Source: Staphylothermus hellenicus DSM 12710
Lineage (GTDB): Archaea; Thermoproteota; Thermoprotei_A; Sulfolobales; Desulfurococcaceae
Assembly (NCBI RefSeq): GCF_000092465.1
Contig: NC_014205.1
Location: 990,001-1,022,000, forward strand
Direction: 5' to 3'
DNA: 32,000 bases
Every line of letters starts with the position of its first letter. Position 1 is the stretch's first letter. Below are positions 6,789-28,332 of the stretch, in pieces. Below the pieces are notes generated by a model, which made no database searches, was not told the origin of the DNA, and saw only the letters and a list, made by a program, of their open reading frames with translations. The translations under genes and the position numbers were made by a program.

Positions 6789-7286
6789 TTAGTTTCGGAG
6801 ATGCTGTCGAGATCTGTAATGTTTTATTATGTTTTTAAGTCTATTATAGATTTTTAGGGTATCGTTTAATAATAATATATTTATTGCTATAAATGATGAT
6901 AAAACATAAACATTGATCATATTTGAAAACAGTATTACATACCCTATAGTGAGAAAAATTGTTACAAGCAATGTGAAGAACTGTCTTGGAACAACTAAGC
7001 CTTTAAATTCAAAAATTAAATCAAGAATTGATCCTCTAGGCTTAACAGCCACATATCCATATCTAGTCTTCTCCACAAAACCTAGGCTACTCAATCTCTC
7101 TAAGTGATGCCTAACACTGTTAGGGCTCTTAAAACCCATCATTCTCTGGATTTCCCTTATACTTAATGGTTCCTTATGTCTGAGAAGCAACATATACACA
7201 TCTAAGCTACTACCACTAAGCTCTATTAGTGGGTCACGATGCTTCATTGATACTTGTCTAGCCTTTCTAAGCAATCCACATCCCAC
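6789..7286 (-). CDS. Membrane-tethered winged-helix (ArsR/MarR-like) DNA-binding protein
   Basis: 'LSIREIQRMMGFKSPNSVRHHLERLSSLGFVEK' is a typical wHTH. The C-terminal half has two hydrophobic helices. The track start is GTG at 7286, with an alternative ATG at 7247. It lies 10 nt upstream of the DHH gene. Confidence 0.65.
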   Translation of the reverse strand: MGCGLLRKARQVSMKHRDPLIELSGSSLDVYMLLLRHKEPLSIREIQRMMGFKSPNSVRHHLERLSSLGFVEKTRYGYVAVKPRGSILDLIFEFKGLVVPRQFFTLLVTIFLTIGYVILFSNMINVYVLSSFIAINILLLNDTLKIYNRLKNIIKHYRSRQHLRN

Positions 7287-10769: not shown

Positions 10770-11336
10770 TTGGTGGTCACGGACATGAGCGAGGAAAAAA
10801 CTATACTGCCATTATCTGAAGCTATATATCTTGTTCTTCATAGTATTAGACTCAGAATTGGAAGAATATTAATTGTTATAGTTGCTATAACTGCTAGCAT
10901 AGCATATATGGTTAGCTTGGATATGTTATCTTCCATTCTTATATCAAATATTAATCCCCAAGGTGCTGAAGTATATATGTTATTACTTGATCTAACTGCT
11001 TTCACGGTTGCAGCCGCGGGAACAATGAATTCGTTGCTTATAATGATCGCTGAGAGATACCATGAAATTGGAACTATGAAAAGCTTTGGAGCTAGAGATA
11101 TTCATATTTTCGAATTATTAATGCTGGAAGCTGTTATTCTTACAATTATAGGTGGATTATTAGGATACATTATTGGGATAGGAATAGGATACATGCTAGG
11201 TGGTAGTGGAGATATATTGTTTCTTCTAGAAAAATCATTAGCTGTAGCAGTTATTATTGGCTTAGTTTCAGCATCATATCCATCCTATCAAGCCGCTCGT
11301 ATGAGCCCCGTAGAAGCACTTAGAGTGGAGGTGTGA
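10770..11336 (+). CDS. Minimal FtsX/MacB-type ABC permease (4 TM, no extracytoplasmic domain)
   Basis: FtsX-domain signature 'ERYHEIGTMKSFGARDIHIFELLMLEAVILTIIGGLLGYIIG' and terminal 'SYPSYQAARMSPVEALR'. Only about 10 residues separate TM1 and TM2, where MacB/LolC/FtsX carry a domain of roughly 200 aa. The likely start is the ATG at 10785. Confidence 0.8.
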   Translation: MVVTDMSEEKTILPLSEAIYLVLHSIRLRIGRILIVIVAITASIAYMVSLDMLSSILISNINPQGAEVYMLLLDLTAFTVAAAGTMNSLLIMIAERYHEIGTMKSFGARDIHIFELLMLEAVILTIIGGLLGYIIGIGIGYMLGGSGDILFLLEKSLAVAVIIGLVSASYPSYQAARMSPVEALRVEV

Positions 11337-12106
11337 AAATGCAGAATGCTGAAGAAGCTAAGAATGTAAAGCTGCCTAGCAGGAGAAAACTTGAATATGT
11401 TGTTGAAGCGGTTGAGGTGAAGAAATATTATAAGATGGGCAAGTTTATCGTGAAAGCCCTTGATGGCGTTACATTTAATGTGAAGAGAAGAGAATACGTT
11501 AGTATAATGGGGCCAAGTGGTAGTGGTAAAACAACATTATTCAACATGATCGGAGGACTGGATAGGCCAACCGGTGGAAAAGTCTATATTGACGGAGTCG
11601 ATATAGCGATGCTGGATGCCTATGAACTAGCATGGCTTAGAGCTAAGAAGATAGGATATATTTTCCAAACATTCAACTTAATACCAGTACTCACAGCAGT
11701 AGAGAACGTTATGTTGCCAATGATCTTTGTAGGTACACCATATGAAGATGCAATAGTGAAAGCTAAGAAATTACTGGAGCTTGTTGGGCTTGGAAAATTC
11801 ATACATCATAAACCAGCAGAACTCAGCGGTGGACAGCAGCAGAGAGTGGCTGCTGCTAGAGCACTAGCAAATGATCCATCAATAATACTGGCAGATGAAC
11901 CCACTGGAAACCTAGACTTACATACAGGCTTGAAGCTAATCAATTTATTAAAGGAAATAAATGAGAAAAAAGGTGTCACTATTGTTACTGCAACACATGA
12001 TCTCAAAATGGTTGATGTAAGCGACCGTATTATTTGGATAAGAGATGGTAAGATAGAGAAAATTGAGCTTAGAAGAGATATTGAAGCTGTAATGGGTGAG
12101 CAGTAG
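11333..12106 (+). CDS. ABC transporter ATP-binding protein, MacB/LolD-type (paralog 1)
   Basis: Walker A 'GPSGSGKTT', Q-loop 'FQTFNL', signature 'LSGGQQQRVA', Walker B 'ILADEPTGNLD' and H-loop 'ATHD'. GGAGGTG precedes the ATG at 11339, which is an alternative to the GTG at 11333. Confidence 0.95.
   Translation: MKMQNAEEAKNVKLPSRRKLEYVVEAVEVKKYYKMGKFIVKALDGVTFNVKRREYVSIMGPSGSGKTTLFNMIGGLDRPTGGKVYIDGVDIAMLDAYELAWLRAKKIGYIFQTFNLIPVLTAVENVMLPMIFVGTPYEDAIVKAKKLLELVGLGKFIHHKPAELSGGQQQRVAAARALANDPSIILADEPTGNLDLHTGLKLINLLKEINEKKGVTIVTATHDLKMVDVSDRIIWIRDGKIEKIELRRDIEAVMGEQ
11510..11564. repeat. 55-nt block identical to 12229-12283 (Walker A region of the two ATPase paralogs)
   Basis: Hand alignment shows GGGCCAAGTGGTAGTGGTAAAACAACATTATTCAACATGATCGGAGGACTGGATA in both genes. 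The flanks are clearly diverged. Confidence 0.9.
11855..11895. repeat. 41-nt block identical to 12574-12614 (between the signature motif and Walker B)
   Basis: GCTAGAGCACTAGCAAATGATCCATCAATAATACTGGCAGA occurs in both paralogs. Confidence 0.9.
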
Positions 12107-12834
12107 TGGGGGATGTTGTGATCAAAGTAGTTGATCTCCATAAATACTATGTATTGAAGGGAGAAACCGTAAAAGCTCTTCAGGGAATAAATCTCGAGAT
12201 CTACAGGGGCGAATATGTATCCGTTCTTGGGCCAAGTGGTAGTGGTAAAACAACATTATTCAACATGATCGGAGGACTGGATAAGCCTACATCAGGCAAA
12301 GTATATGTTGACGGAGTAGATATTTATTCTTTGCCGAAGAAGAAACTCGCATATTTTAGAAATAAGAAACTAGGCTATGTTTTCCAAACATATAATCTCA
12401 TACCATATTTAACCGCCGTAGATAATGTAGCATTACCCATGATATTCGCTGGTGTTCCAAGAAAGAAACGTATCGAAAAAGCACGTAGACTTCTAGAAGC
12501 AGTTGGCTTAGGGGAAAGACTCCACCATAGACCCTTCGAGCTTAGCGGTGGACAACAACAGAGAGTAGCCATCGCTAGAGCACTAGCAAATGATCCATCA
12601 ATAATACTGGCAGACGAGCCTACAGCTAATTTAGATCTAGTTACGGGTAAGCAAGTCATTAATTTATTGAAGGATATAAGCTTAACACATAACGTTACAG
12701 TCGTCACCAATACGCATGATTTAAAGATGATTGACGTAAGTGATCGAATAGTCTATATTAGAGACGGAAAAATCGAAAGGATAGAGGAGAGACAAACAGC
12801 TGAGATAAGAGACATAATTATTGATATAAGCTAG
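12106..12834 (+). CDS. ABC transporter ATP-binding protein, MacB/LolD-type (paralog 2)
   Basis: It has the same full motif set ('GPSGSGKTT', 'LSGGQQQRVA', 'ILADEPTANLD', 'NTHD'). It abuts paralog 1 with a 1-nt overlap. The start is GTG at 12106 or GTG at 12118. Confidence 0.95.
   Translation: MGDVVIKVVDLHKYYVLKGETVKALQGINLEIYRGEYVSVLGPSGSGKTTLFNMIGGLDKPTSGKVYVDGVDIYSLPKKKLAYFRNKKLGYVFQTYNLIPYLTAVDNVALPMIFAGVPRKKRIEKARRLLEAVGLGERLHHRPFELSGGQQQRVAIARALANDPSIILADEPTANLDLVTGKQVINLLKDISLTHNVTVVTNTHDLKMIDVSDRIVYIRDGKIERIEERQTAEIRDIIIDIS
12229..12283. repeat. Second copy of the 55-nt identical block
   Basis: See 11510-11564. Confidence 0.9.
12574..12614. repeat. Second copy of the 41-nt identical block
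   Basis: See 11855-11895. Confidence 0.9.
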
Positions 12835-13387
12835 AATATATTTCTTTCAAAAACTCCTCATTTAGTAAAAGCATTCTCTTAATATCAGAGGTAGGCGTTA
12901 ATGTATAGAAAACACGTGTTCTTCCCACTACTATAATACTGGATCCTTTAGAAGACTTTATTTCTTTTCCGACAAGCACTAGCTTATTGCTTGTTTTCAA
13001 TACTATTTCCTCATATTTTGTAGAAAATATTTTATCTCTCAATTTCTCAACGAGTTTGTCAGCTACGTCTTTGAGTTTTCCTTTTCCACTTAATAATAAC
13101 TTCCTACCTAAACCCAGAATACCCTTTTTGACTATGATATCAACAAATCCAATATCCTCTAATTCTTCATCTAATTCTAGAACAGATATTGTTATATAAT
13201 AGAATTCGCCTGTATACTTGGTTGTATTTTTCCCTATGAAAAAATACTTCATATATGGATTATTTTTAAAACGAACTAGAGTTGCTCCTCCTTTATCATA
13301 TATTATTTCTGCTCCAGCTGGTAAGATTTTTTTAAGGGATTTCGATGTTTCACCGGTTAAGCTACTCATATAATTTATTCCCCACAC
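12818..13387 (-). CDS. Hypothetical cytoplasmic protein downstream of the surface GH57
   Basis: 189-codon ORF lying 7 nt after the GH57 stop on the same strand. The start is GTG, with an alternative ATG at 13369. No motif recognised. Confidence 0.4.
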   Translation of the reverse strand: MWGINYMSSLTGETSKSLKKILPAGAEIIYDKGGATLVRFKNNPYMKYFFIGKNTTKYTGEFYYITISVLELDEELEDIGFVDIIVKKGILGLGRKLLLSGKGKLKDVADKLVEKLRDKIFSTKYEEIVLKTSNKLVLVGKEIKSSKGSSIIVVGRTRVFYTLTPTSDIKRMLLLNEEFLKEIYSSLYQ

Positions 13388-16002: not shown

Positions 16003-17958
16003 CTAGTATACTAGTAGCCAGAGACTTTTCATGATTAATGCAACAGCAACCGATATAGCTATCATAAGTCCCTCTCCCAATCCTAGACCTGCTGATATTA
16101 CTGCAACGTATTCCTTAAACCACTCAGATCCTTTCTTTTTCTCCAATATCCTAGCGATAATGCCTCCGATAAACATTGTCATAGTATATGATATTGGCTG
16201 ACTAATACCTATAGTAAATCCTATGAGTTCGAATGGTATCGAGAAGATTTTAACCAACGCAACTATGACTGCTCCAACTATAAATGGTACCATTATTCGT
16301 GTAGGCCAGTTAGAGAAATGCGATAATAATGCAGATGCTACACTGCTCTCACCAGTTTTTAATGCACCACTAGCCCAAGCAGGCCATAACAATGCCCACA
16401 ACGCTGATACACGCCAGAAAACAGCTGATGCTGGATAAGCCGAGCTTGGAATAGGAGCTATTCTCCAAAATATATCTGCATATATTAGGCCCATCAAATA
16501 TGTTAGTGGAAACGCTATAAAGTATGCTTTCAAGTAATCGCTCTTCTTAGTATTTGTCCAATCACATGCAACATAGACTGCTGTCCATCCACTAGCTCCT
16601 CCATAAACATATATGGGTGTAAACCATGCTGCAACACCTCTATAACCACTCGCCAGTAAAGCTCCCTCCTTAACATATGGTAAGTTTATCCCAGTAGCTG
16701 CTTCACCTAAAGCACGAGTATTTGCCAGCTGGAACAACGTAGAGAAACCCACTATTAATGCCAGGAATATTAATAGAAATTGGATAGTAGCATATTGTGG
16801 CTCAACAATGTATACTAGATAATAAACGAACAAGCTTAATCCAGTAGCTGATAACAAATATATTAGGAGAGCAAATCTTGTAAGCGGCAAACCCCAAATA
16901 GTAGGCTCTGAAACCGTGCTTGCTTCTCTACCACGTATCTTTGGGGGTCTAAATACTCTAACAACGCTTCTCCAATTAATAACCATTGGCGCTAATCCTG
17001 CTGCAAAACTCAACCCTATTAATGGCCCCACATATAGTTGGAGCAACCCATACTGGAAAATATCTCCTAGATTCATTCCCGGCCTCCACAATGTAAATAA
17101 TCCATACTTGACAGCCATTGGAGCACCTATTAGATAAGCAAATATTCCTCCAATAAATATTGACACATTAACTTTCCAAGGCATAATCATACCTATACTT
17201 ATCAATAGTAGATCTAGGCTGAAACCCAGACTAGCACCATTCAATCCTATAGATTCCAGAGAAGATGTTAGATCAGCCCATGGAACAGGAAGTAGCTGAA
17301 CGCCAAACATGAACCAAACACCATATAGTAGGAAGGTGTAAAGTAAACTGAATACTGCAACACTAATCATTACCCTAGCCTTATCTCTCCAAATATGTTT
17401 TTCTGCAAGAACAATACTTGATTCAGCCCATATCCTAGCACCTGGGAACGGTAATTTTTCTTCTACAGCATATATCTTGTAGAGCACATATGCTAGACTA
17501 AGATCCATACCCTTGGTAAGTAGGGCAGATGCAATAGCTACAAGAAGAGGCGGGATGAAAACTGCTTGGAAAAGTGTTCTAGGCAGTTCAGGAATAGTGG
17601 GAGCATACCAGAACGGTATCTTACCATATAATCCGAAACTTCTAGCATATTCGCTTATAGCAATATACCATGCAAGTATAAGGTTCACCCCGAACAAGCT
17701 CTCAGAAATAGTTGTTCCAACATTACTAAACATTACAAATGCTTCTTGACGAGTAAGCCTAGCCCCCATTATTGCGGCTATAGTTGTAAACAACAACAAT
17801 GTAGTATATTCTGCAGAATTAATTATCTGCCAGGGATTAAGACCTGCAACCAAGTTAAGCCATATAGCTGCAGGCTCAAATACTAGTGCTCCATAAAGAA
17901 TAGCTAAAACAACACGCCATGTAACAGCTGATCCTCCATTGCTCGTGGATTCGGCCAA
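16003..17958 (-). CDS. Large polytopic membrane protein, putative transporter (distant OPT-superfamily-like), paralog A
   Basis: 651 aa, hydrophobic throughout with many TM segments. 'EEKLPFPGARIWAES' (nt 17419-17463) and C-terminal 'VISAGLGLGEGLMIAIS' resemble remembered OPT motifs (L.FPsGtA.AE; aSGLIaGeal). The TTG start is preceded by GGGAGG. Confidence 0.5.
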   Translation of the reverse strand: MAESTSNGGSAVTWRVVLAILYGALVFEPAAIWLNLVAGLNPWQIINSAEYTTLLLFTTIAAIMGARLTRQEAFVMFSNVGTTISESLFGVNLILAWYIAISEYARSFGLYGKIPFWYAPTIPELPRTLFQAVFIPPLLVAIASALLTKGMDLSLAYVLYKIYAVEEKLPFPGARIWAESSIVLAEKHIWRDKARVMISVAVFSLLYTFLLYGVWFMFGVQLLPVPWADLTSSLESIGLNGASLGFSLDLLLISIGMIMPWKVNVSIFIGGIFAYLIGAPMAVKYGLFTLWRPGMNLGDIFQYGLLQLYVGPLIGLSFAAGLAPMVINWRSVVRVFRPPKIRGREASTVSEPTIWGLPLTRFALLIYLLSATGLSLFVYYLVYIVEPQYATIQFLLIFLALIVGFSTLFQLANTRALGEAATGINLPYVKEGALLASGYRGVAAWFTPIYVYGGASGWTAVYVACDWTNTKKSDYLKAYFIAFPLTYLMGLIYADIFWRIAPIPSSAYPASAVFWRVSALWALLWPAWASGALKTGESSVASALLSHFSNWPTRIMVPFIVGAVIVALVKIFSIPFELIGFTIGISQPISYTMTMFIGGIIARILEKKKGSEWFKEYVAVISAGLGLGEGLMIAISVAVALIMKSLWLLVY

Positions 17959-18114: not shown

Positions 18115-20145
18115 TTATGTTCCCAATACATATGATAACCATATCATTATATAGCTGAATATTGCTAATCCAGCCATGAACGGCACTATCTTCTCCTCGT
18201 ATCCCTCTACACCTGTAACCCTTATAATGATCCATTTAGAAATCAATGCTATAATGTTTGGTATAAACATTAGTAGTCCGGTAACAGGCATATCACCTAT
18301 CAATATACCTATTGGATTAAACGGTACACCTGGGAACAAGAGCCTTACCCACACCAGTAATATTCCAAGTATTATTCCAACAACAAACTGCGGCATGAAG
18401 AGCGTTGGATCATTACTCATGTGTTGTATATAGTTTTGATGAACCATGCTATCGATCCAGTTTGGCTCAAACCCTGTATCTGCTCCACCAACCCATTTAC
18501 CACCTACAGAGCCGAACCATCCATAATAGTATAGTCCTAGTAGAGTTATTAGGAATGATAATATTATACCGGAGATCACTGCTATGAAAGATATTTTAAC
18601 CACCTTGTTAGGATTGACACCTCCAACCTTAGCTAGTTTGAACCCCTCCATAACTGCTGGGCCAGGAGTTGTAGCTAATGCACGATCATTGACTAATGGG
18701 TAAAATGATGCTGCAGCTGCAAATGCTTCTTTCGAGTGCCAGTTACCGCTATACCTGTATGGCAGCCATGGCAGTACTAGCATTTCATGCCACCAAGGAC
18801 CATAGTTATAGATTGCTGTGGTCCATGTTGATTCTCCACGTATACGCATCCATGTAATATATAATAGTAGAGTCACTACTACGACGAGCAATGCTATATG
18901 GGGTTCTACGCCTGTTCCGGCCAGTAATCCCCATGCTAGTAAGAAACCTATTATTGCAAAGATTGTTCCAAACCATACTTCTTTATCACTTCTCAAATTC
19001 TTGAGATGCCTCCAGGCTAGTGCAAACCATGCTATGGGGAAACCTATTGCTAAACCCCTTGTCACCATATGAGGCATTAAACCATACCAGTGGCCGATTG
19101 TGAAATAGTTTGTGTGTGCATCCTGTGTTTCCGTAAGGGGTACTATACCTAAGGATACCTCGATTGGCGGCAACACTATATACATGAGGAAATACCATAC
19201 AACAGCTGTAATCAATATATCCATTGGCATCAGAAATGCTAAACCAATGAATAATGGTGCAACAGTAATCATTAATGCTATATCATATCCTATTGATGGA
19301 GAAAGATCGTAGCCTCCATACTGGGATACGAGTAATTGACCATAGATTGACGGCAGGTCCTGTATTATCTTTAATGAAGCCAACAGGTTGGGCAGTAGCA
19401 TAACTACTGCAACAACAGCTCCTACTAAGAACATTATCTTCGAGATAAACCTATGCTCAGAAGCCCCCTTGAACCCTGTTATTCTCATAACTTCAACAGC
19501 CATTTGTGCGTATGGGAATGGTAACATTTCCTCCTCTATCCATGGCTTACGAAACATTAACGCAATACCTATTTGAGCCATTGCTAAACCGAAAAAGACA
19601 AGTATCCACAGCGTCAGCGATGGTGCCCACGCACTTAATACTATGCCTACCCAGTTAGGATCAGATAATAGCATTGAACGAGCTGATTCATTAAATATTG
19701 GTGCTAATGCAGGTATTTCTTGGCCATTAACAATGATCGTGCCCTTAGGAACCCATAGATCAGGCATTAATGCTCCATTATCAGTTATTGATGGAACCTG
19801 ATAAGTCATATAGGCATAATGGACCAGTAGGAAATTCGCTGAGAAAGCATAACCAGCACTCGCAGCAATAGCTATATAGATCAAAACTGCATCAGCAACA
19901 GTTAAAGCAAGTCTTTTACTGATCAATGCAACTATTAAATTGAGAACACCTATTACCAGTAATAATATAAGCGCTGCCCATGCCCATACCCATTCGAGAA
20001 AAGTGCTCGGCCACGCTAATCCATATAGTAAGTTCGTTATAATCGGAGCTAGAATAGCCATTATTATAGCTACAACAACTCCTTTAATGGTGACGCTAGC
20101 AGGTGAAACACCCCATAATAGTTTCTTTCCCTCTTCAACTGACAT
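18115..20145 (-). CDS. Large polytopic membrane protein, putative transporter, paralog B of 16003..17958
   Basis: 676 aa with many TM segments. It shares 'EEEMLPFPYAQMAVE' (nt 19492-19536) and a C-terminal 'PF.PIG..IG..P....MFI..IIA' block with paralog A. GGTGG precedes the ATG. Confidence 0.5.
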   Translation of the reverse strand: MSVEEGKKLLWGVSPASVTIKGVVVAIIMAILAPIITNLLYGLAWPSTFLEWVWAWAALILLLVIGVLNLIVALISKRLALTVADAVLIYIAIAASAGYAFSANFLLVHYAYMTYQVPSITDNGALMPDLWVPKGTIIVNGQEIPALAPIFNESARSMLLSDPNWVGIVLSAWAPSLTLWILVFFGLAMAQIGIALMFRKPWIEEEMLPFPYAQMAVEVMRITGFKGASEHRFISKIMFLVGAVVAVVMLLPNLLASLKIIQDLPSIYGQLLVSQYGGYDLSPSIGYDIALMITVAPLFIGLAFLMPMDILITAVVWYFLMYIVLPPIEVSLGIVPLTETQDAHTNYFTIGHWYGLMPHMVTRGLAIGFPIAWFALAWRHLKNLRSDKEVWFGTIFAIIGFLLAWGLLAGTGVEPHIALLVVVVTLLLYITWMRIRGESTWTTAIYNYGPWWHEMLVLPWLPYRYSGNWHSKEAFAAAASFYPLVNDRALATTPGPAVMEGFKLAKVGGVNPNKVVKISFIAVISGIILSFLITLLGLYYYGWFGSVGGKWVGGADTGFEPNWIDSMVHQNYIQHMSNDPTLFMPQFVVGIILGILLVWVRLLFPGVPFNPIGILIGDMPVTGLLMFIPNIIALISKWIIIRVTGVEGYEEKIVPFMAGLAIFSYIMIWLSYVLGT

Positions 20146-20249: not shown

Positions 20250-23200
20250 TTAAACCTTAATTATTGATTCAGCTTTTGCAATGTATTGTTTTTTCTCGTC
20301 AAGAGTAATGGTTCTCCATAATAGTAATTGTTTACGGAGAGCATCTATGAAGAACTTGTTTGACCTTATCCATAATCTCGTATTGCCTGATAATCTCTTC
20401 AGATAAATACTGATCTCCCACTCATTCGGATTAACTTCTAAAGCTCTAATCTGGAACTCTTGTTTTACACCTGCATGCCATGGCTTAAGCCTAACAACCC
20501 CTCCTAATACTACAACGTTTTTACCATTCATTGTTGTTTTACCAATGCTTATCTTCTCAATTACAAAATTACCTATATCTGGACTCGTGAACCCGCTGAT
20601 GTATTCGTATACATAATATAGTGAGCCAATCAGCTCCTTATAACTCGTGATCTTGAAAGGCATAGGTATAACCCATTCATCTCCTTTAGGCTTTGTTGGA
20701 AACTCCCATTTTCTACGGAGACTTGGCAATGCCATCTTGCTTGCCTTGAATACAGGATATATAGTAGCCGCTAAGACAGAAATAAATGTGGCAGCAATAG
20801 CTAATACAACGTATTCGCTGCTATAGTTTGGCCTGAATATTTCAGGCATAAATGTTGCAGCTGATGTAGTTATTAGTATTCCTGTAACATAGCCTACTAC
20901 AGTAGCTATTAGAGCATATGCTAGTGCCTCCGCTATGAACATTAAACCTATCTGGCTAGGCGATAATCCTAGTGCGGCATAGATGAATATTTCCCTTTTC
21001 CTCTCATATATGCTTCCGAGAAGAACACCAAGAATAGAAACGCTAGCAATTATGATTGGTGCAACAACATAGTTGAAGCCGGCTCCACTTAATGCAATCA
21101 TTTTACTATACTTGGCTACTCCATGGCTAGGCGAGTATGCATATGTATCTGTTGATGGTAGGATAAATACTATATCTCTACCTAGAATAAATGGATCAAT
21201 CCCTGTCTTAATAGATATTTGAGCTAAATAAAAGCTTAAACCTTTATTCAACCATGGATTGATCTCAGCTATTTTAGCTGGAATAAATATTGTTCTAACA
21301 GTTCTAGCTCGTGGAAACCCAATTACAGGGGTAATTGTTTGTCCATCAAGCTCTCTTATCTCAAGGATTCTTCTATCATCATATGCTCCTATGATTCTAA
21401 ACCTTACTCCTGCGATGACAATTGTTTTATTAACATCGATAACTCCATTAGTATCATTTATTGCTGTAGCCGGTATTATAGCAACGTATTGATCTGAACT
21501 ATTAAACCACCTACCCTTAACAATAATCTTTGAAATATTACTGATTACATCTTCCTCGGGCTCTACTGCCGTTATAGAATTTATCGGGTAATACTTCGAT
21601 GGATCATCATAGAGGAATAGATAAGTTGAACCAACTGCCCAATACCTTACAACAGCGTCTTTGCCAATGATAACTTTAACTAGATCATATAATTGACTAC
21701 CCATTGGTAAATTCCTATCTATCGTTTCCCTCTGCAATAAGAAGCCCTGAGGCCTTATAGGTTCAAAGCCTGATAGAGCAACTGGTTTAGGAGCTACATA
21801 GCTCGTCATACTCGTGAATAAAACAACACTAATAACAACCACAATTAAAGTTATTATTGTCAATAATGTTCTCAGTCTTCTCTTCTTCATATATTCAACG
21901 CCATAGCTGAAAGACATATAACCAGCTACAAGCTTGCTTCTCTCAACCTCATGGACACCGACTATTTTCCTCCTTATTTCCTTCAATGCCTTATTGAAAT
22001 CACCTAGGAGAACTAGGAGCGCTGGTATCACTAGGATTATCATTATGAAGCCAATAATAGTCATTATAGCATTAGCTGTTAAATGGAGAGCGGGATGTAT
22101 GAAATAGAATATTATGCCTGGAATAGCTGTTACTACTAGTGTTTTCCCAATTACACTAAATGGGCTAGAGCCTGGCTTTCTAAAGTAGAGCCCCATAATA
22201 AATGCGAACAATACTAGTAATACTGAGAACAGTGTAGCAGTGTTTTCTACATCTAGGTAAGCGGATTTAGTTAATTGGTAACCATTATATGCTAAAGTTA
22301 AACCTTCAAGAGTATAGGCTCTATATGCTGTGTAATTATATGTGGAGAGGGATTTTGTTGCATTAGATAATGCTGTTGCCCCTCTAGTAACAAATTCCTC
22401 TGCAGCCGGATTTCTTATTTTATAACTAGATAGCTTCTCCAATCTCCTATCAACGATATTTATTGTAGAGCTTAATGCATCGTACAAGCTATATTTATGG
22501 CCGATCCTAACATTTTCAATAACATAAAATACCGGGTCAGGGCCGAATACTAGGCTATAGTTAAGATCCTTGTATAGATAAGCTACAAGGAACCCTGTTT
22601 CGTCTATTCCTATATAGTAATAGTCCGGCTCAGCCATTGTATCCGTTCTTACAATTCTACATCCAATACTTCCACCCTCAATAGGGATCTGATAAGATAA
22701 CGGATCCACAACCATGTTTACAGTAATGTTTCCCTTAAACTTAATAATCCATACCTCCCACGGTGCTTGCTTTGATCCAAGTACTGGTTGTGAAATAGAG
22801 ACAGAGGAACCCCTGGATACGGTTCCCATAACGTTTAATGCTACTACGTTGCCATTGTCCGAGAGAACAAGCGCTGTTATTGTTAAGCCTGTTGATCGCG
22901 ATGTAGGTAATCCTTCAACAGTAAAATATCCCTCATCATCAGTAAACCTTACTATCCTTAAATTCCAAGGACTACTTGTCTGAGTCCTTGATCCAGCACT
23001 AATAATGACTAGTGCTCTGCTAAGATTTGCTTTTTTGAGATTAACTCGTTGTCCAAGCTTCGGATTCCAAACCATGACTTGCCCAATTAAATTAGCAAAC
23101 ATCTCATTTCGAGGACTTGTACTAATACGTGTTGGCGCATTTGGAGAGAACCCTGCTGAAATAGCGTCTCTTAGTTGTTGCGGATTCTTGCTATATATTT

Positions 23201-24680
23201 GATCCAATATTATATCGAGTAAGTTATACTGCAATACTATATTTTCCGAATTGATCTTATCGAAATAATCAATTGGCGTCCCCTTTGCACCTTTTTCGGC
23301 GAAAGCTGATTTAAGAGTAAATGCTGCTAGTCCCGAACTCCAAAACGGCTCTGTATCAAGCCAGTATGGGCCGGGGAACAATGCCCACCATGTATTAGGA
23401 TCGCGTGAATACGAGAATAATTGTCTAATAGCAGATCCTAGATCTTTTCCTAATTTATTCGAAACGCTTTGTTCAAGCCTGTTCAGATCAAAAACATTTG
23501 ATATAAAGCCAGCATAATAGTTTATTGGGCCACGTGTTATTCCTACTGCTTGTGCTGTGTAGAAATACCCTATACTAGTTGGAGCTATATATTTGGATCT
23601 ATAATTTAGATCTAATCCTATAAACAGTGTTTTTGCAGGATTTATAACTATTGATATGTTTCCAAAAGATAGTTTTTGTTTATTAAAAATATATTTATCC
23701 ACAAAATGTCTCTGCCCCTCTAAACCCTCATAATACCCGGAGAACCACACTATTATAGTATCGTATTGAGGGGTCTTATTCACTAGTTTCTCAGCATACA
23801 TTAACAAGTATATTGGTGCTAAAGCATCTGTTGCTCCAGGAGCGAACCCTACTACCGGGGACCATGAATCATAATGAGCCCCCAACACGATCCTGTAATC
23901 ATGGTTTTGTCCTGGAACATATGCAACAATATTTGAAACATTAACTTCTACCCATTTCGATCTCAGCTCTAAATATCCCCTCTTACCATTGAGATCGCTA
24001 AGTGTTAAACCATATTCTTCTTTCAACATTCGAGTAGATATATAGCCTATAGGAAGATCAACTGGGGTGTCAAGGTATTTATCATAATTCTGGCTATTCA
24101 CAATATTATCTTCATAGAATAAGATCGCTTTTACTCCTAGATGTGGATCGAGAAGCCATAACCAGCGCCAATCATTTGAGTAGCTTATCAATACTATGCT
24201 TCCATGAAGATCTACGCCGTTAAGATCATTGATGGAATCTGCAACGATAATTTTGCCTTTACAAATAGCATTAACCGGAACACCTCCACTAGGCCATATC
24301 GGGTAAACTTTAATAGTTCTATTATCAACTTTTAGATAACTACCCTCATCAACCGGGATAACAACTGTATAGTTATCAAGAACAACATTTACAGTTATGT
24401 TTTTAATTAAATTGTATAGAATCCTTGTAGCTTCGAAGTATCCTCTATGCCCTGTTAATCTATCATGTATGCCTGCAAATAGGTTAAGATAATGGTTAAG
24501 CTTAGCACTTGTATTTGTCGCTGTTAAATTAATATTTATATTTTTATTAAAAACATCAAAAACAGGATCGTTTAAAAAATTATTATTACTACTCACCGAA
24601 TATGCTCCAGTATAATTTATGGATGCGAAAAGGGAAACAATGATTAAGAAAAACAAATAGATGAATATTGTTTTTTTCAT
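20250..24680 (-). CDS. Giant surface/membrane fusion protein: PA + M28-like ectodomain, TM bundle, MacB/FtsX-type permease module, C-terminal cytoplasmic domain
   Basis: Signal peptide at aa 1-25. PA-like region around aa 125-225 ('KGKIIVADS', 'GSIVLISY', 'VKAILFYED'). M28-like motifs at aa 266-456 ('LGAHYDS', 'GATDALAP', 'YYEGLEG', 'LDTEPFWSSGLAAFTL'). 'RIVRFTDDEGYFTVEGLP' is CarboxypepD_reg-like. Three TMs at aa 815-893. 'MKKRRLRTLLTIITLIVVVISVVLF' plus a 240-aa loop plus 'GSIYERKREIFIYAALGLSPSQIGLMFIAEALAYALIATVVGYVTG' give a MacB-type 4-TM FtsX module (aa 931-1316). A 160-aa tail follows. The ORF is uninterrupted. Confidence 0.8.
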   Translation of the reverse strand: MKKTIFIYLFFLIIVSLFASINYTGAYSVSSNNNFLNDPVFDVFNKNININLTATNTSAKLNHYLNLFAGIHDRLTGHRGYFEATRILYNLIKNITVNVVLDNYTVVIPVDEGSYLKVDNRTIKVYPIWPSGGVPVNAICKGKIIVADSINDLNGVDLHGSIVLISYSNDWRWLWLLDPHLGVKAILFYEDNIVNSQNYDKYLDTPVDLPIGYISTRMLKEEYGLTLSDLNGKRGYLELRSKWVEVNVSNIVAYVPGQNHDYRIVLGAHYDSWSPVVGFAPGATDALAPIYLLMYAEKLVNKTPQYDTIIVWFSGYYEGLEGQRHFVDKYIFNKQKLSFGNISIVINPAKTLFIGLDLNYRSKYIAPTSIGYFYTAQAVGITRGPINYYAGFISNVFDLNRLEQSVSNKLGKDLGSAIRQLFSYSRDPNTWWALFPGPYWLDTEPFWSSGLAAFTLKSAFAEKGAKGTPIDYFDKINSENIVLQYNLLDIILDQIYSKNPQQLRDAISAGFSPNAPTRISTSPRNEMFANLIGQVMVWNPKLGQRVNLKKANLSRALVIISAGSRTQTSSPWNLRIVRFTDDEGYFTVEGLPTSRSTGLTITALVLSDNGNVVALNVMGTVSRGSSVSISQPVLGSKQAPWEVWIIKFKGNITVNMVVDPLSYQIPIEGGSIGCRIVRTDTMAEPDYYYIGIDETGFLVAYLYKDLNYSLVFGPDPVFYVIENVRIGHKYSLYDALSSTINIVDRRLEKLSSYKIRNPAAEEFVTRGATALSNATKSLSTYNYTAYRAYTLEGLTLAYNGYQLTKSAYLDVENTATLFSVLLVLFAFIMGLYFRKPGSSPFSVIGKTLVVTAIPGIIFYFIHPALHLTANAIMTIIGFIMIILVIPALLVLLGDFNKALKEIRRKIVGVHEVERSKLVAGYMSFSYGVEYMKKRRLRTLLTIITLIVVVISVVLFTSMTSYVAPKPVALSGFEPIRPQGFLLQRETIDRNLPMGSQLYDLVKVIIGKDAVVRYWAVGSTYLFLYDDPSKYYPINSITAVEPEEDVISNISKIIVKGRWFNSSDQYVAIIPATAINDTNGVIDVNKTIVIAGVRFRIIGAYDDRRILEIRELDGQTITPVIGFPRARTVRTIFIPAKIAEINPWLNKGLSFYLAQISIKTGIDPFILGRDIVFILPSTDTYAYSPSHGVAKYSKMIALSGAGFNYVVAPIIIASVSILGVLLGSIYERKREIFIYAALGLSPSQIGLMFIAEALAYALIATVVGYVTGILITTSAATFMPEIFRPNYSSEYVVLAIAATFISVLAATIYPVFKASKMALPSLRRKWEFPTKPKGDEWVIPMPFKITSYKELIGSLYYVYEYISGFTSPDIGNFVIEKISIGKTTMNGKNVVVLGGVVRLKPWHAGVKQEFQIRALEVNPNEWEISIYLKRLSGNTRLWIRSNKFFIDALRKQLLLWRTITLDEKKQYIAKAESIIKV

Positions 24681-26731: not shown

Positions 26732-27097
26732 TTATATCAAGAATTTAAGTCTATGCATTAATACTAAGACTCCTGCGAAACGGGCTTTTAAACCATTCAT
26801 AATATTATCTCTAGGCGGATCAAGAAAATATCCTTTGTAAAGGCCTGATAAATTAGTAATGTAGAAAGCTTGAAGAACAAATAAGGTTAGTGCAACTAGT
26901 TTCCAGGGTTTATTCTTTATTATTTGAATTATATCGTTGGTTACGTGATCAATTCTATTTATAAGCTCTTCATATACATCTATTCCCTCATCAATCATTG
27001 CAATGAATAAATCGTTTAAATCAATACCGTATTCTCTCAATAGATCATGTAGAGCTGTCTCAATCGGTATTGTTAAGTATTTTTCACCATTCAACAC
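26732..27097 (-). CDS. Hypothetical small protein with one TM segment
   Basis: 121-codon ORF overlapping the end of the upstream gene by 14 nt, with a GTG/TTG start. It has one hydrophobic helix 'WKLVALTLFVLQAFYI'. Confidence 0.4.
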   Translation of the reverse strand: MLNGEKYLTIPIETALHDLLREYGIDLNDLFIAMIDEGIDVYEELINRIDHVTNDIIQIIKNKPWKLVALTLFVLQAFYITNLSGLYKGYFLDPPRDNIMNGLKARFAGVLVLMHRLKFLI

Positions 27098-27935
27098 AAT
27101 AAGTACCCTTCACAATGTCTATTGCTTCATCAAGTCTTTTACGGGGTGCTTTAACCAGTGTATATTGTATATAGTCGGGTTTAACACATTTATTTATCTT
27201 CTTCAGTAAGACTCCATATTTAATCCTCTTCAATAAGGCATGTGCTATGTAATATTCTTCATAAGAATTCTTGCTAATGAGAACTAACTTTGTAAATCTA
27301 GGAATAAGGTATCTCAGATGCTTCTTGAAAATATCGTCTTCGCTTACCTCTTGAGATTCAATAACGTATCTGGCTATAGAATACTGTATTACATGCACTT
27401 TCTTATCTCTACTCATAAAATAAGCCATACTATAACCTATTTTGAAATCTCTAAGATTAACAAAGTAATCCTCATATAGTCTCAACCCTATACCCATTAG
27501 TCTCCAATTAACCATTCCATTATGGATTGGATGACAATTTATATTGCCTAGAATACTCATAAATGATCCCATAGATGCTGATACGCCATCTAATTGGACT
27601 ATAAATAATCGTCTTGTCTCGTCGCAAAACCATGACGCAGTAAATACTTTGTTGTTTTCATCTCTCAAAAAATATCCTAATACTTTATGTTTATGTAGCG
27701 TTGTCGAGAAACTACTTTTTCTAGTAAATCCTTTTTTCTCGAGTTTTCCAAGGTATTTCTCATAGGCTTTAGGGAAATCGCTTGGCTTACTATGTCTCCA
27801 ATATATTTCGAGTTTTGCACCGGTTTCAGGCGCAGCTACTAGGACTCCATTAATACTTGTTCCGCCCTCTCTAGTTATTTCCCATCCACTCGGTAGTTTT
27901 ACTTCGACCTTGTTCCAAGAAATTAGTTTATCCAA
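27084..27935 (-). CDS. Hypothetical protein (no recognised domain)
   Basis: 283-codon ORF. The TTG start is preceded by GGTG 8 nt upstream. It follows the PqqD-like gene on the same strand. Confidence 0.5.
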   Translation of the reverse strand: MDKLISWNKVEVKLPSGWEITREGGTSINGVLVAAPETGAKLEIYWRHSKPSDFPKAYEKYLGKLEKKGFTRKSSFSTTLHKHKVLGYFLRDENNKVFTASWFCDETRRLFIVQLDGVSASMGSFMSILGNINCHPIHNGMVNWRLMGIGLRLYEDYFVNLRDFKIGYSMAYFMSRDKKVHVIQYSIARYVIESQEVSEDDIFKKHLRYLIPRFTKLVLISKNSYEEYYIAHALLKRIKYGVLLKKINKCVKPDYIQYTLVKAPRKRLDEAIDIVKGTYCVEW

Positions 27936-27948
27936 GTATACGGCACCA

Positions 27949-28332
27949 CTATTTCTCCGGGATTTTTAATTCTATCAGGCCCTTCATTACAAGTGTTTTT
28001 ATATAGTGGTAAACAGCTAATTCAACATTTCTCCTGGAAAGACCGGTTATAGATGCTATTTTCTTAACTATGTTTTCAACGGTGTGTTCTCCATCACACA
28101 TTTTCCACACGATAGATCCTATTTTGTCGAGTACTATTCTTTTATATTTCGGCGGCGGAGTTATAGAGATCGCCTTAATTATTTTACCGATCAAACCCTT
28201 ATATTCGAGCTCGACGAGGATTGTAACTATGCCATCATCATCCTCTGTATAGTCTTCAACTACACGTATAGGAATTGATTTAAGCCATCGCTCCCTCTCA
28301 ATTCTTATACCTTTAGATCTTTTGAATATCAT
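27949..28332 (-). CDS. PqqD-family (RiPP-recognition-element-like) small protein
   Basis: 'LDKIGSIVWKMCDGEHTVENIVKKIASITGLSRRNVELAVYHYIKTLVMKGLIEL' (nt 27967-28131) fits the remembered PqqD/PF05402 pattern (Ln.tg..iW.l.dG..tv.eiv..l...y.v......D v..fl..L...gli). Its ATG overlaps the glycogen synthase stop as ATGA. Confidence 0.65.
   Translation of the reverse strand: MIFKRSKGIRIERERWLKSIPIRVVEDYTEDDDGIVTILVELEYKGLIGKIIKAISITPPPKYKRIVLDKIGSIVWKMCDGEHTVENIVKKIASITGLSRRNVELAVYHYIKTLVMKGLIELKIPEK

Follow-up and report, generated by a model that had tools for sequence, protein, structure and literature searches.

Does the open reading frame at 20250..24680 (minus strand) of the window, i.e. the whole 32 000-nt stretch of Staphylothermus DNA analysed here, encode a genuine fusion of a peptidase-like ectodomain with an FtsX-type permease, and what could such a protein do? 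The frame is unbroken from its ATG start to a product of 1476 aa. Since stop codons are frequent at the ∼36% G+C observed across the window, a frame of this length is not a chance occurrence. Full-length homologs were found at identities from 90% (Staphylothermus marinus F1) down to 22% (Bathyarchaeia), which bears out the single uninterrupted ORF of the original prediction. We conclude that the ORF is real and that its product carries a PA/M28-fold ectodomain fused in cis to a complete MacB/FtsX module.

Architecture, topology and conservation of the fusion

From the N- to the C-terminus the protein consists of the following parts:

24612..24680, minus strand: N-terminal hydrophobic segment, aa 1-23 (hydropathy; MKK and 16 hydrophobic residues)
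23151..24515, minus strand: PA/M28-fold head, aa ∼56-510 (Pfam M28, PDB profile matches, AF2/Foldseek, site conservation in 132 relatives)
22509..23096, minus strand: two beta-sandwich modules of ∼7 strands each, aa ∼529-724 (AF2 secondary structure)
22248..22487, minus strand: three-helix stalk, aa ∼732-811 (AF2 models)
21996..22247, minus strand: three-TM-helix (3TM) block, aa 812-895 (hydropathy, AF2; within PADLOC model PDLC01991)
21870..21995, minus strand: Lys/Arg-rich cytoplasmic linker, aa 896-937 (12 Lys+Arg)
20733..21869, minus strand: MacB-type permease module, aa 938-1316 (Pfam FtsX and MacB_PCD, PDB profile, Foldseek matches to MacB/LolCDE)
20253..20732, minus strand: conserved cytoplasmic C-terminal domain, aa 1317-1476 (many invariant or nearly invariant columns, AF2)

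The AF2 model of the N-terminal part (pLDDT 85.8) matched PA/M28 aminopeptidases, transferrin receptor and GCPII in Foldseek (E-values from 2e-20 to 1.5e-16 among the 50 matches listed). The C-terminal model, of moderate confidence (pLDDT 72.4, pTM 0.48), matched MacB, LolCDE, HrtB, YtrF and YbbP. The helical stalk leading into three TM helices, as originally predicted, was recovered by AF2 and hydropathy, and in the AF2 models the final stalk helix continues without a break into the 3TM block; in sequence this block does not resemble the FtsX domain (hhalign probability 0.6%). Of the CarboxypepD_reg-like module proposed originally, the beta character was retained, as two seven-stranded modules in AF2; the HMM search of the protein and its relatives gave no Pfam match in this region, CarboxypepD_reg included.

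In the permease module TM1 is followed by an extracytoplasmic domain of 240 aa (aa 961-1202) and then by the FtsX domain with its three helices (aa 1209-1316; PF02687, E=3.4e-12). The MacB_PCD match (aa 938-1103) scored 24.1 bits, slightly below the gathering score of 27; of 11 relatives, 8 gave a significant match (best E=1.9e-9); with the PDB profile match to MacB 5gko (aa 900-1301, E=6.6e-11) and the Foldseek matches, the complete MacB-type module stands as predicted. The linker forms an amphipathic helix whose end, ‘MKKRRLRT’, immediately precedes TM1. In the family alignment M931, R934 and L940 are invariant at this junction, and L936, R937 and T938 nearly so. The coupling-helix motif of the FtsX domain, ‘ERKREIFIYAALGLSP’, is similarly constrained (R1227, G1238, L1239 and P1241 invariant; E1226, E1230, Y1234 and S1240 nearly so). 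The expected 160-aa cytoplasmic tail proved to be a conserved domain with the motifs ‘PSLRRKWxxPTKPKGDEW’ and ‘RKQLLLWR’, predicted by AF2 as beta-alpha-beta4-alpha2 with pLDDT mostly of 77-90 and <70 over the last ∼20 residues. It had no PDB or Pfam match by sequence and matched lipid-binding helix-grip folds weakly in Foldseek (E∼0.01).

Hydropathy placed TM segments at ∼1-23, 815-835, 843-865 and 870-895, and in the permease module at ∼938-960, 1203-1225, 1245-1272 and 1290-1312. Lys and Arg cluster where the chain is predicted to be cytoplasmic, with 12 such residues in aa 896-937 and 6 in aa 1313-1340, while N-x-S/T sequons are found in the head (13) and the permease loop (4) and are absent from the cytoplasmic parts. 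Together these three patterns put the head outside the cell; judged by sequence, the ectodomain is extracellular, as had been proposed. The predicted signal peptide was seen as a hydrophobic segment that could also be an uncleaved N-in signal anchor. In one relative (P0021) a PqqD domain at the N-terminus (aa 44-102) presumably precedes the equivalent segment, which could therefore serve there as an anchor.

In a survey of orthologs, a step suggested with the original prediction, the head used as the sole query produced hits to 483 clusters at E≤1e-10; 132 of the best 147 representatives were at least 1300 aa long (median length 1488 aa). Going by these homologs, the fusion is the rule across the family and is neither a frameshift nor an assembly join. 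The family was observed in Thermoproteota and in at least eight bacterial phyla (Armatimonadota, Omnitrophota, Sumerlaeota and Latescibacterota among the carriers); the fusion does occur in an archaeon, a Staphylothermus, and is not specific to archaea. Several genomes have more than one copy (L022/L030/L041, L021/L026, L029/L031 and L028/L051), a situation usual among nutrient-uptake systems.

Neighboring permeases and ATPases

The genes of the window relevant to the large gene are:

18115..20145, minus strand: DUF6785 protein, 676 aa, immediately downstream of the large gene (Pfam DUF6785, E=1.6e-29)
16003..17958, minus strand: OPT-family permease, 651 aa, conserved partner (Pfam OPT, 39.1 bits versus cut-off 25.8)
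27949..28332, minus strand: PqqD-like protein, 127 aa (Pfam PqqD)
27084..27935, minus strand: 283-aa protein of no recognised family (travels with PqqD, small FtsX protein and ABC ATPase)
10770..11336, plus strand: small FtsX protein, 188 aa, four TM helices, no extracytoplasmic domain (Pfam FtsX, E=1.1e-15)
11333..12106, plus strand: ABC ATPase a, 257 aa (Pfam ABC_tran; Walker A, signature, Walker B and H-loop intact)
12106..12834, plus strand: ABC ATPase b, 242 aa (Pfam ABC_tran; motifs intact)

Among 50 loci with enough flanking sequence, 42 had an OPT-superfamily permease gene within 400 bp of the large gene; as called, the OPT genes and the large gene overlap or are a few bases apart. The eight loci with no adjacent OPT-type gene (L004, L053, L071, L074, L077, L080, L083 and L084) come mostly from Fimbriimonadaceae, Chthonomonas and Latescibacterota. 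The DUF6785 protein aligns with the OPT-like set in hhalign (99.7%, E=2e-26, 518 columns); on this profile comparison it is a homolog of that set and an OPT-superfamily paralog, giving the window two OPT paralogs. The 651-aa permease has full-length orthologs adjoining the large gene, at E=2e-45 in Sumerlaeota and at E=4e-36 in Bathyarchaeia. Its ortholog in S. marinus, a peptide fermenter, is annotated as an OPT peptide transporter (Smar_1400). OPT family members are known as importers; to our knowledge, those characterised are stand-alone secondary carriers, and a partnership with an ABC machine is without precedent.

The original prediction named no ATPase; credible candidates are present in the window, 8 kb from the large gene and on the opposite strand. 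Their link to it comes from synteny: in other phyla a block of a PqqD-like gene, a second FtsX gene and one or more ABC ATPase genes is situated directly beside the large gene, and the window contains each of these components. Orthologs of ATPase a that adjoin the large gene gave E-values of 1e-88 to 1e-111, versus 5e-32 for an unrelated ABC ATPase. For ATPase b synteny is kept in Desulfurococcales (L001, L007 and L010) and is also seen in L005. Most loci have no ABC ATPase within 10 kb of the large gene. We consider the two intact ATPases at 11333-12834 as probably those serving the 1476-aa protein. The small FtsX protein, with the coupling motif ‘ERYHEIGTMKSFGA’ and with orthologs adjoining the large gene in six loci (L005, L032, L044, L046, L066 and L081), is a candidate partner half-permease. 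The PqqD-like protein, with an ortholog within the Sumerlaeota module and an N-terminal fusion in P0021, is a probable cytoplasmic partner. The 283-aa protein, with neither a Pfam nor a PDB match, occurs beside the PqqD-FtsX-ABC genes in L044, L046 and L081 as well as in Desulfurococcales.

The altered M28 site and possible functions

The M28-like fold of the original prediction was supported by PDB profile and Foldseek matches as well as by Pfam (PF04389, aa 250-347, E=2e-9, covering only positions 1-91 of the 193 in the profile). The PA-like insert had no Pfam match in the 1476-aa protein itself; it was recognised by Pfam in 4 of 13 relatives, and the family profile aligns over the insert of the PA-bearing M28 aminopeptidases 2ek8 (E=7e-19) and 6hc6 (E=2e-15). 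Further PDB profile matches of the head were to TfR1, nicalin and GCPII.

The pocket residues (H269, D271, D285, Y316-Y317, D357 and D442-T443-E444) are non-canonical. The Glu-Glu pair of M28 enzymes, general base and Zn ligand, is replaced by Y316-Y317; ‘AEENGL’ of 2ek8 aligns with ‘G(H/Y)(W/Y)(Q/E)G’ of the family, and among 132 relatives none has Glu at the first position and one has it at the second. With this family-wide replacement the head, as read from its sequence, is not a canonical M28 enzyme. The rest of the pocket is conserved in these relatives (D271 in 132/132, an acidic residue at 285 in 124/132, D357 in 104/132 and E444 in 113/132), the last two M28 ligand positions being placed by motif resemblance, without residue-level alignment. 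Position 316 is His in 104 of the 132; a catalytic metal site could thereby be restored in most relatives, and activity may not have been lost. M28-fold proteins without these catalytic residues, such as transferrin receptor and nicalin, are non-catalytic.

Our preferred reading, with a probability of about 0.45, is that the 1476-aa protein is the large subunit of a conserved but uncharacterised type VII (MacB/FtsX-type) ABC machine that cooperates with OPT-type permeases and probably serves to capture oligomers and take them up. The ATPases at 11333-12834 would dock on the conserved coupling helices of the 1476-aa protein and probably also on those of the small FtsX protein; by binding and hydrolysing ATP they would move the extracytoplasmic domain and, via the stalk, the head. 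The head would act as a binding or gating module, as proposed by parallel with transferrin receptor, nicastrin and nicalin, rather than as a canonical aminopeptidase, capturing extracellular oligomers and offering them to the neighboring OPT-type permeases, which would import them. In a peptide-fermenting archaeon these oligomers would most likely be oligopeptides, with glycans possible in relatives with other heads. The alpha-glucan genes (GH57, glycogen synthase) among which the cluster is set in Desulfurococcales disfavor peptides.

We rate as rather unlikely a catalytically active head, namely a metallo-exopeptidase tethered to the membrane that has re-built its site and trims extracellular peptides for the OPT permeases, with FtsX as an anchor or ATP-dependent regulator of access. 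Such an enzyme would explain the strongly conserved pocket, with His at 316 as a possible ligand or base, and would suit a peptide-fermenting host with an annotated peptide transporter; also, the nearest solved structures are active PA-bearing aminopeptidases. However, the general-base Glu is missing in 132/132 relatives, position 316 is Tyr in the protein studied here, the Pfam match is limited to the first half of the M28 model and the fold has the non-catalytic members mentioned above.

We find it unlikely, too, that the machine extracts or exports in the manner of LolCDE, MacB, HrtBA or YbbAP-TesA. In this case the FtsX module would pull a hydrophobic or lipid-linked molecule, or a PqqD-delivered peptide, out of the membrane and pass it to the head, and an envelope component would be flipped or channelled by the OPT-like proteins. 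The type VII systems characterised to date are known to extract or expel substrates from the outer face of the membrane, and none is known to import; PqqD-like domains are peptide-binding chaperones of RiPP pathways, and a protein of this type belongs to the module. The glycogen synthase and GH57 genes around the cluster in Desulfurococcales point the same way, as does the helix-grip resemblance of the tail, which is weak. Outside this order, annotated loci show no conserved association of the large gene with biosynthetic, precursor-peptide or glycosyltransferase genes. The importer record of the OPT family and the several copies per genome also argue against extraction. YbbAP is reported to work with a hydrolase (PMC12646458), a point in favor of extraction.

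A signal-controlled machine, in which the C-terminal domain is a ligand sensor that could bind a nucleotide second messenger, with a link to defence or stress, is improbable. The PADLOC models ‘CARF_m8--CARF_LolE_TM’ (E=4.2e-45) and ‘CARF_m8--CARF_Beta-galactosidase_LolE_TM’ (E=1.3e-26) both match aa 812-1349, and the tail ranks with the best conserved regions of the family; yet the match stops ∼30 residues into the tail, whose predicted fold is not Rossmann-like, no CARF structure appeared among the Foldseek or PDB profile matches, and the loci with annotated neighbors showed neither cas nor cyclase genes. Least probable is the FtsEX-EnvC analogy of the original prediction, i.e. a dead, ATP-switched head activating a separate envelope or S-layer hydrolase: a peptidase-fold head lacking canonical catalytic residues on a type VII module does recall EnvC with its inactive LytM domain, but in annotated loci the large gene has no conserved neighbor with a hydrolase, division or envelope function, the constant partners are OPT-type permeases, several genomes have multiple copies, and the carriers include peptidoglycan-free S-layer archaea as well as diderm bacteria.

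A widespread family

Our literature search found no published description of a protein fusing a PA/M28 head to a MacB/FtsX module, consistent with the earlier statement that no characterised example was known. The names of the PADLOC models, which list the 3TM and FtsX chassis also with a beta-galactosidase-like head, suggest that the chassis of 3TM block, FtsX module and tail has already been catalogued computationally. With the chassis apparently among these models, the 1476-aa protein is uncharacterised rather than unseen, a member of a family that is widespread yet unstudied.

Head and permease of the large protein

The large ORF of Staphylothermus hellenicus DSM 12710 (20250..24680, minus strand) runs uninterrupted from an ATG start for 1476 codons; as stop codons are common at the G+C content of the window (∼36%), a frame of such length is not a product of chance. 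The closest named homolog, a 'DUF214' protein of Staphylothermus marinus F1 (1476 aa), is 90% identical to its product, while homologs in other Thermoprotei and in Bathyarchaeia remain almost equal in length at identities down to 22–29%. In the databases these homologs appear as 'DUF214', 'FtsX-like permease family protein', 'M28 family peptidase' or 'hypothetical protein'.

The original prediction was that a peptidase-like head and an FtsX-type permease are joined in cis here, in an archaeon. We used the head alone (aa 1–810) as a query against 1.84 billion cluster representatives and observed hits to 775 clusters at E ≤ 1e-3 (483 at E ≤ 1e-10). Lengths of at least 1300 aa were found in 132 of the best 147 head-matching representatives (median 1488 aa); the shorter ones are probably fragments. 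The fusion is therefore real, not a frameshift or an assembly join, and it is the rule in the family. Its host here, Staphylothermus (Desulfurococcales), is indeed an archaeon, and the rule extends beyond archaea. A genome scan with one genome per species returned 305 stretches encoding relatives of the large protein, with archaeal hosts among Desulfurococcales, Thermoproteales, Thermofilum, Bathyarchaeia and Brockarchaeota, and bacterial hosts among Armatimonadota (including the cultivated Fervidibacter sacchari PD1, Fimbriimonas and Chthonomonas), Omnitrophota, Ratteibacteria, Desantisbacteria, TA06 and Latescibacterota. A host in Sumerlaeota is known from homolog and neighbourhood data, outside the genome scan.

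The predicted anatomy was confirmed overall, and both FtsX and M28 gave significant Pfam hits. The match to Peptidase_M28 (PF04389) spans aa 250–347 (E = 2e-9) and is limited to profile positions 1–91 of 193; such a match is present in 12 of 13 relatives. Since a single-sequence search of PDB with the head produced chance matches only, a family profile was needed: its aa 43–317 align with M28 aminopeptidases that carry a PA domain (2ek8, E = 7e-19; YwaD/BSAP 6hc6, E = 2e-15), and shorter stretches of transferrin receptor, nicalin and GCPII align as well. The AlphaFold2 model of aa 24–812 (pLDDT 85.8, pTM 0.86) consists of the M28/PA head, two modules of about seven strands each (aa ∼529–724) and a three-helix stalk. 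In a Foldseek search the head matched 2ek8, PaAP and BSAP at E = 2e-20 to 1e-18, with transferrin receptor and GCPII among the 50 matches listed (E from 2e-20 to 1.5e-16).

No Pfam match to the PA domain (PF02225) was seen in the large protein at E ≤ 10; four of 13 relatives have one (best E = 1.2e-4), and in one relative, P0018, the match (19.8 bits) lies under the cut-off of 23.9. Still, the family profile runs through the PA insert of 2ek8 and 6hc6, and Foldseek matched PA-bearing enzymes over 466–532 columns. One label of the original prediction, CarboxypepD_reg (PF13620), found no HMM support, either in the large protein at E ≤ 10 or in 13 relatives at E ≤ 1; by their modelled fold, the two beta modules could possibly be related to it.

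The M28 co-catalytic zinc site is built of His, bridging Asp, Glu, Asp and His ligands and a general-base Glu (the 'EE' pair). We aligned the first three M28 motifs by HMMER to 2ek8 and 6hc6. The large protein keeps H269 and D271 in 'AHYDS' and the bridging acidic residue D285 in 'PGATD', while the 'EE' pair ('AEENGL' in 2ek8) is replaced by Y316-Y317.

Residues at the M28 site positions, counted over 132 full-length relatives
269: His in 89, Tyr in 32
271: Asp in 132
285: Asp or Glu in 124
316: His in 104, Tyr in 14, Glu in 0
317: Trp in 72, Tyr in 23, His in 14, Glu in 1
357: Asp in 104
444: Glu in 113

As the sequence alignments end near residue 320, the equivalence of D357 to the fourth ligand, and of 'LDTEPF' to the fifth-ligand 'SDHxPF' motif, would be one of motif resemblance only; the Foldseek search of the head gave no residue-level alignment. 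Judged from these residues, the site is conserved yet re-tooled, and a canonical co-catalytic aminopeptidase mechanism is excluded. The conserved positions would suit a pure binding role of the head. An active peptidase with a rebuilt site, e.g. a different metal site, would be in keeping with them too, but we consider it unlikely.

The large protein thus has the M28 fold and lacks the M28 catalytic site. The PA-domain M28 aminopeptidases of Aneurinibacillus (AM-1, 2ek8), Bacillus subtilis (YwaD/BSAP, 6hc6) and Pseudomonas aeruginosa (PaAP), its best profile and structure matches, share with the head the fold, probably with its PA insert, the 'HxD' motif and the bridging acidic residue; however, they are soluble, secreted and active enzymes with the Glu-Glu pair and the His ligand, whereas the large protein has Tyr-Tyr (His-Trp in most relatives) and 'LDTEPF' in place of 'SDHxPF'. 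M28-fold ectodomains are known as non-catalytic receptor, gatekeeper or scaffold of membrane complexes in transferrin receptor, nicalin and nicastrin. These proteins, like GCPII, present a PA/M28-fold ectodomain at the membrane surface; they are eukaryotic single-pass proteins without an ABC module, and no kinship beyond a likeness of fold is meant.

In the permease part, the Pfam match to FtsX (PF02687) covers aa 1209–1316 (E = 3.4e-12, 46.9 bits versus a cut-off of 25.5) and is found in 11 of 11 relatives; the match to MacB_PCD (aa 938–1103, 24.1 bits) is just under the cut-off of 27, with eight of 11 relatives matched (best E = 1.9e-9). Against PDB sequences, aa 900–1301 of the family profile align with the whole MacB permease part (5gko, E = 6.6e-11), and the permease region aligns with YtrF, LolF and LolC as well. 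The AlphaFold2 model of aa 796–1476 (pLDDT 72.4, pTM 0.48) matched MacB and LolCDE in Foldseek at E = 4e-11 to 1e-8, along with HrtB, YtrF, YbbP and BceB. In this model the last stalk helix continues into the first of three TM helices; after this 3-TM block come a cytoplasmic linker rich in Lys and Arg, the MacB-type module and a folded domain at the C-terminus. Between TM2 and TM3 lies a putative ATPase-docking coupling helix, 'ERKREIFIYAALGLSP', with invariant R1227, G1238, L1239 and P1241 and nearly invariant E1226, E1230, Y1234 and S1240. Location of the head outside the cell, as predicted, is indicated by hydropathy, by the distribution of Lys and Arg and by N-glycosylation sequons (13 in the head, four in the permease loop, none in the cytoplasmic parts).

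By its sequence and predicted fold the large protein qualifies as a type VII ABC permease. With MacB, LolC/LolE, FtsX, YbbP and HrtB it has in common TM1, a large extracytoplasmic domain and TM2–4, the FtsX domain, a MacB_PCD-like domain and an 'ERxREI...G' coupling helix between TM2 and TM3; it differs from them by ∼810 extra N-terminal residues, three extra TM helices and an added, conserved 160-aa cytoplasmic domain at the C-terminus. We also considered a degenerate first FtsX repeat made up of the N-terminal helix and the 3-TM block. Its topology would fit, yet this idea was rejected for lack of sequence support (hhalign of aa 800–905 versus aa 1195–1320, probability 0.6%).

For the C-terminal domain (tail, aa 1317–1476) AlphaFold2 predicts a beta-alpha-beta4-alpha2 fold, and Foldseek found weak helix-grip matches only (E ∼ 0.01). 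A search with aa 1314–1476 gave no PDB or Pfam sequence match, and the tail showed no relation to a 283-aa protein encoded in the window.

Candidate partner genes and other genes of the window

Gene neighbourhoods were collected for six relatives with precomputed Pfam annotation, two more relatives and 78 genome-scan loci; locus numbers have the form L0xx. The window genes to be considered as partners, and the carbohydrate genes around them, are as follows.

Candidate partner genes and flanking carbohydrate genes in the window
16003–17958 (−): OPT-like protein, an OPT-family permease
18115–20145 (−): DUF6785 protein
10770–11336 (strand opposite to that of the PqqD-like and 283-aa genes): small FtsX protein
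11333–12106 (same strand as the preceding): ATPase a
12106–12834 (same strand as the preceding): ATPase b
27084–27935: 283-aa protein, recurring with the ATPase block
27949–28332: PqqD-like protein (Pfam)
8264–10183, 13395–15920, 28329–29978 and 29997–31946 (all −): three GH57 genes and a GT5 glycogen or starch synthase

Adjacency to OPT-superfamily genes was counted in the 50 loci whose sequence reaches 2.5 kb or more beyond either end of the large gene. Such a gene lies within 400 bp of the large gene in 42 of them, and two or more are present in 25. Junctions of called genes are tight, with overlaps of 7 nt (L003), 1 nt (L005) and 4 nt (L085) and gaps of 3 nt (L005) and 5 nt (L006). In the window, the OPT-like protein matches PF03169 (39.1 bits versus a cut-off of 25.8) and is a full-length ortholog of the corresponding neighbour in Sumerlaeota (E = 2e-45) and Bathyarchaeia (E = 4e-36); the DUF6785 protein is its paralog (hhalign probability 99.7%, E = 2e-26, 518 columns). 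By gene order, the S. marinus ortholog of the large protein is Smar_1398, in a locus that spans Smar_1394–1400 and has the ABC block downstream. The ortholog of the OPT-like protein there, Smar_1400, is annotated as an OPT peptide transporter, and S. marinus is a peptide fermenter (PMC2678158). By our mapping from L060, the F. sacchari PD1 counterpart of the large gene lies at NZ_CP130454.1 3,508,218–3,512,777 (complement), with its OPT-like neighbour at 3,506,140–3,508,146; RNA-seq and proteomic data are published for this strain. For the metaproteome, the F. sacchari paper names an M28 peptidase and an OPT transporter, which may be the products of this locus. Our literature searches found nothing on DUF6785 and nothing on expression of the large gene in S. 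marinus.

The second recurrent group of neighbours is a block that encodes the 283-aa protein, the PqqD-like protein, the small FtsX protein and either one ABC ATPase or two. Some of its genes sit directly beside the large gene in L005, L032, L044, L046, L066, L081 and the contig of relative P0021; in most loci no ABC ATPase occurs within 10 kb of the large gene. In the window the parts are present yet dispersed, and the same layout is kept in the Desulfurococcales loci L001, L007, L010 and L012. ATPases a and b, which are of the FtsE/LolD/MacB type, are intact, with Walker A (GPSGSGKT), signature (LSGGQQQR), Walker B (IILADEPT) and H-loop. ATPase a matches its orthologs beside the large gene in other phyla at E = 1e-88 to 1e-111, whereas an ABC ATPase unrelated to it scores 5e-32. 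Four TM helices and a coupling motif of its own are present in the small FtsX protein, which is practically without an extracytoplasmic domain, unlike MacB, LolC/LolE, FtsX, YbbP and HrtB. A heteromeric permease pair of LolC/LolE style is possible.

In P0021 (1902 aa, JGI contig) a PqqD domain is fused at the N-terminus (aa 44–102). Such a Rosetta-stone fusion argues that the PqqD-like protein of the window is a physical partner of the same machine. We infer that the PqqD domain of P0021 precedes the first hydrophobic segment, which would then be an N-in anchor.

Other FtsX proteins were seen beside the large gene. A 548-aa one comes immediately before it in L086. A second FtsX protein of ∼1000 aa adjoins it in some Thermoproteales and Bathyarchaeia loci (L014, 8150–11302; also L015, L016, L025, L035 and L039), sharing the FtsX module and the motif 'PSLxRRWK' after TM4; it may replace the small FtsX partner there. 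In L077 and loci like it, ABC genes also occur upstream of the large gene; they were rejected as partners, those of L077 encoding an unrelated type I importer (BPD_transp_1, TOBE).

The remaining ORFs of the window are listed separately.

Other ORFs of the window
24795–26621 (−): 608-aa protein, directly upstream of the large gene
26732–27097 (−): 121-aa protein of no known family, between the 283-aa and 608-aa proteins
12818–13387 (−): 189-aa ORF of no known family, after the 841-aa GH57 gene
1628–2773 and 2787–4118 (+): MoxR-type AAA+ ATPase (bpMoxR, E = 5.7e-66), then a VWA-domain protein
633–1088 (−): DUF123 protein
5064–5540 (−): small multidrug-export-family protein
5816–6778 (−): DHH/DHHA1 phosphoesterase
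6789–7286 (−): winged-helix regulator (LexA/TrmB-like HTH)

The first three were found in Desulfurococcales loci only. In the 608-aa protein the N-terminus is signal-like, and the beta-rich body gives a YidC_periplas-like match (E = 2.4e-7); the protein also has a Gly-rich linker ('GGITGGGGG') and is anchored at its C-terminus by a TM segment. It does not correspond to the partner of ∼630–690 aa seen in other phyla, which is the OPT-like protein. A 124-aa gene of L086 resembles that of the 121-aa protein in position. The 189-aa ORF is convergent with ATPase b, with a 17-nt overlap at the 3′-end of the latter. The MoxR–VWA pair is unrelated to the large protein, and the last four ORFs look like ordinary housekeeping context. 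A tRNA scan of the window found no genes.

Proposed working and alternatives

We propose that the large protein and the small FtsX protein would probably pair, as LolC does with LolE, with the two ATPases docking. The ATP cycle would move the MacB-type extracytoplasmic domain and, with the stalk and the 3-TM block as transmitters, the head. Extracellular oligomers would be bound by the head and handed to the OPT-type permeases. To this overall reading, a type VII uptake machine working with OPT-type permeases, we assign a probability of about 45%. Our confidence in its type VII membership and multi-subunit nature is far greater than in transport direction or substrate.

A role in nutrient acquisition is favoured by several considerations. 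Single genomes carry two or three copies (L022/L030/L041, L021/L026, L029/L031, L028/L051), the hosts are heterotrophs degrading proteins or polysaccharides, and longer bacterial relatives sit in loci rich in glycoside hydrolases. The chassis, i.e. the 3-TM block with the FtsX module, is also modular. Two PADLOC models, 'CARF_m8--CARF_LolE_TM' (E = 4.2e-45) and 'CARF_m8--CARF_Beta-galactosidase_LolE_TM' (E = 1.3e-26), match aa 812–1349 only, from the 3-TM block through the FtsX module into the beginning of the tail; the C-terminal part of the models is unmatched. The chassis thus exists without a large head or with a beta-galactosidase-like one, and the large protein differs in carrying a PA/M28-like head. 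Genes for a GH57 amylase/glucanotransferase, a glycogen synthase and a further GH57 protein flank the cluster in Desulfurococcales, with synteny kept at 48–63% protein identity (L008, L012, L013); an alpha-glucan-related substrate is therefore possible in this order.

The likeness of the permease to its Lol, MacB and YbbAP counterparts would also suit an extractor or exporter working in their manner, which we find rather improbable. Even less credit is due to a sensor-controlled machine with a CARF-like tail. It takes its support from the PADLOC label, and this label is not borne out by the predicted fold of the tail, which does not look Rossmann-like; neither Foldseek nor a PDB profile search found a CARF fold in the tail. 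The model names presumably stem from a computational CARF census; Makarova et al. 2020 is reportedly such a census, with related architectures apparently listed. The names suggest that the family is uncharacterised rather than unseen. A defence-system reading was rejected: PADLOC matches to the ATPases reflect generic ABC/AAA similarity, and no cas genes were seen.

The original prediction had also drawn an analogy with FtsEX-EnvC. Like the large protein, FtsEX-EnvC, FtsEX with PcsB, CwlO or RipC, and YbbAP-TesA combine an ABC module of the mechanotransmission class with a hydrolase-fold protein on the outer face. In those systems the partner acts in trans on the extracytoplasmic domain of FtsX or YbbP, whereas the large protein carries its head in cis, ahead of an additional 3-TM block and outside any peptidoglycan context. 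The analogy did not hold up, and a hydrolase regulator of EnvC type is highly improbable, as no cell-wall or division activator or hydrolase genes are kept in the neighbourhoods examined and the hosts include archaea without peptidoglycan.

Novelty and significance

Type VII ABC systems are known from a few bacterial machines: MacAB-TolC, LolCDE, FtsEX, BceAB, HrtBA and YbbAP. To our knowledge, no archaeal one has been studied, nor is any known to cooperate with permeases of OPT type. FtsX-family permeases with large, variable ectodomains are no rarity; what is new is the pseudo-peptidase head in cis, the extra 3-TM block with the conserved tail and, most notably, a conserved genomic association with OPT-superfamily permeases and a PqqD-like protein, where MacB, Lol, FtsX and YbbP have the adaptor and TolC, LolA, EnvC and TesA. 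Literature searches found no description of the family or of an M28 and FtsX fusion. For annotation, it matters that the family is often labelled 'M28 family peptidase' though the canonical catalytic residues are missing.

If real, the partnership would be a new output for mechanotransmission and would give the first functional handle on DUF6785 and prokaryotic OPT proteins. More speculatively, one could picture a hybrid ATP-driven uptake machine, in which a swappable pseudo-hydrolase head, M28-like in the large protein and beta-galactosidase-like in relatives, captures oligomers outside and loads or gates the OPT pair, and in which the PqqD-like protein and the tail are regulatory or assembly parts; we regard this picture as doubtful. 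Were it true, a transporter family thought purely secondary would receive primary-active help, in a manner common to Thermoproteota and many little-studied bacterial phyla. With cultivated carriers at hand (S. marinus F1, Fervidibacter sacchari PD1, Chthonomonas and Fimbriimonas species), the question is testable. The family is abundant in heterotrophs living on detrital protein and polysaccharide (Bathyarchaeia, Brockarchaeota, Desulfurococcales, Armatimonadota, Omnitrophota and Sumerlaeota), and it may therefore matter for the way these organisms feed.
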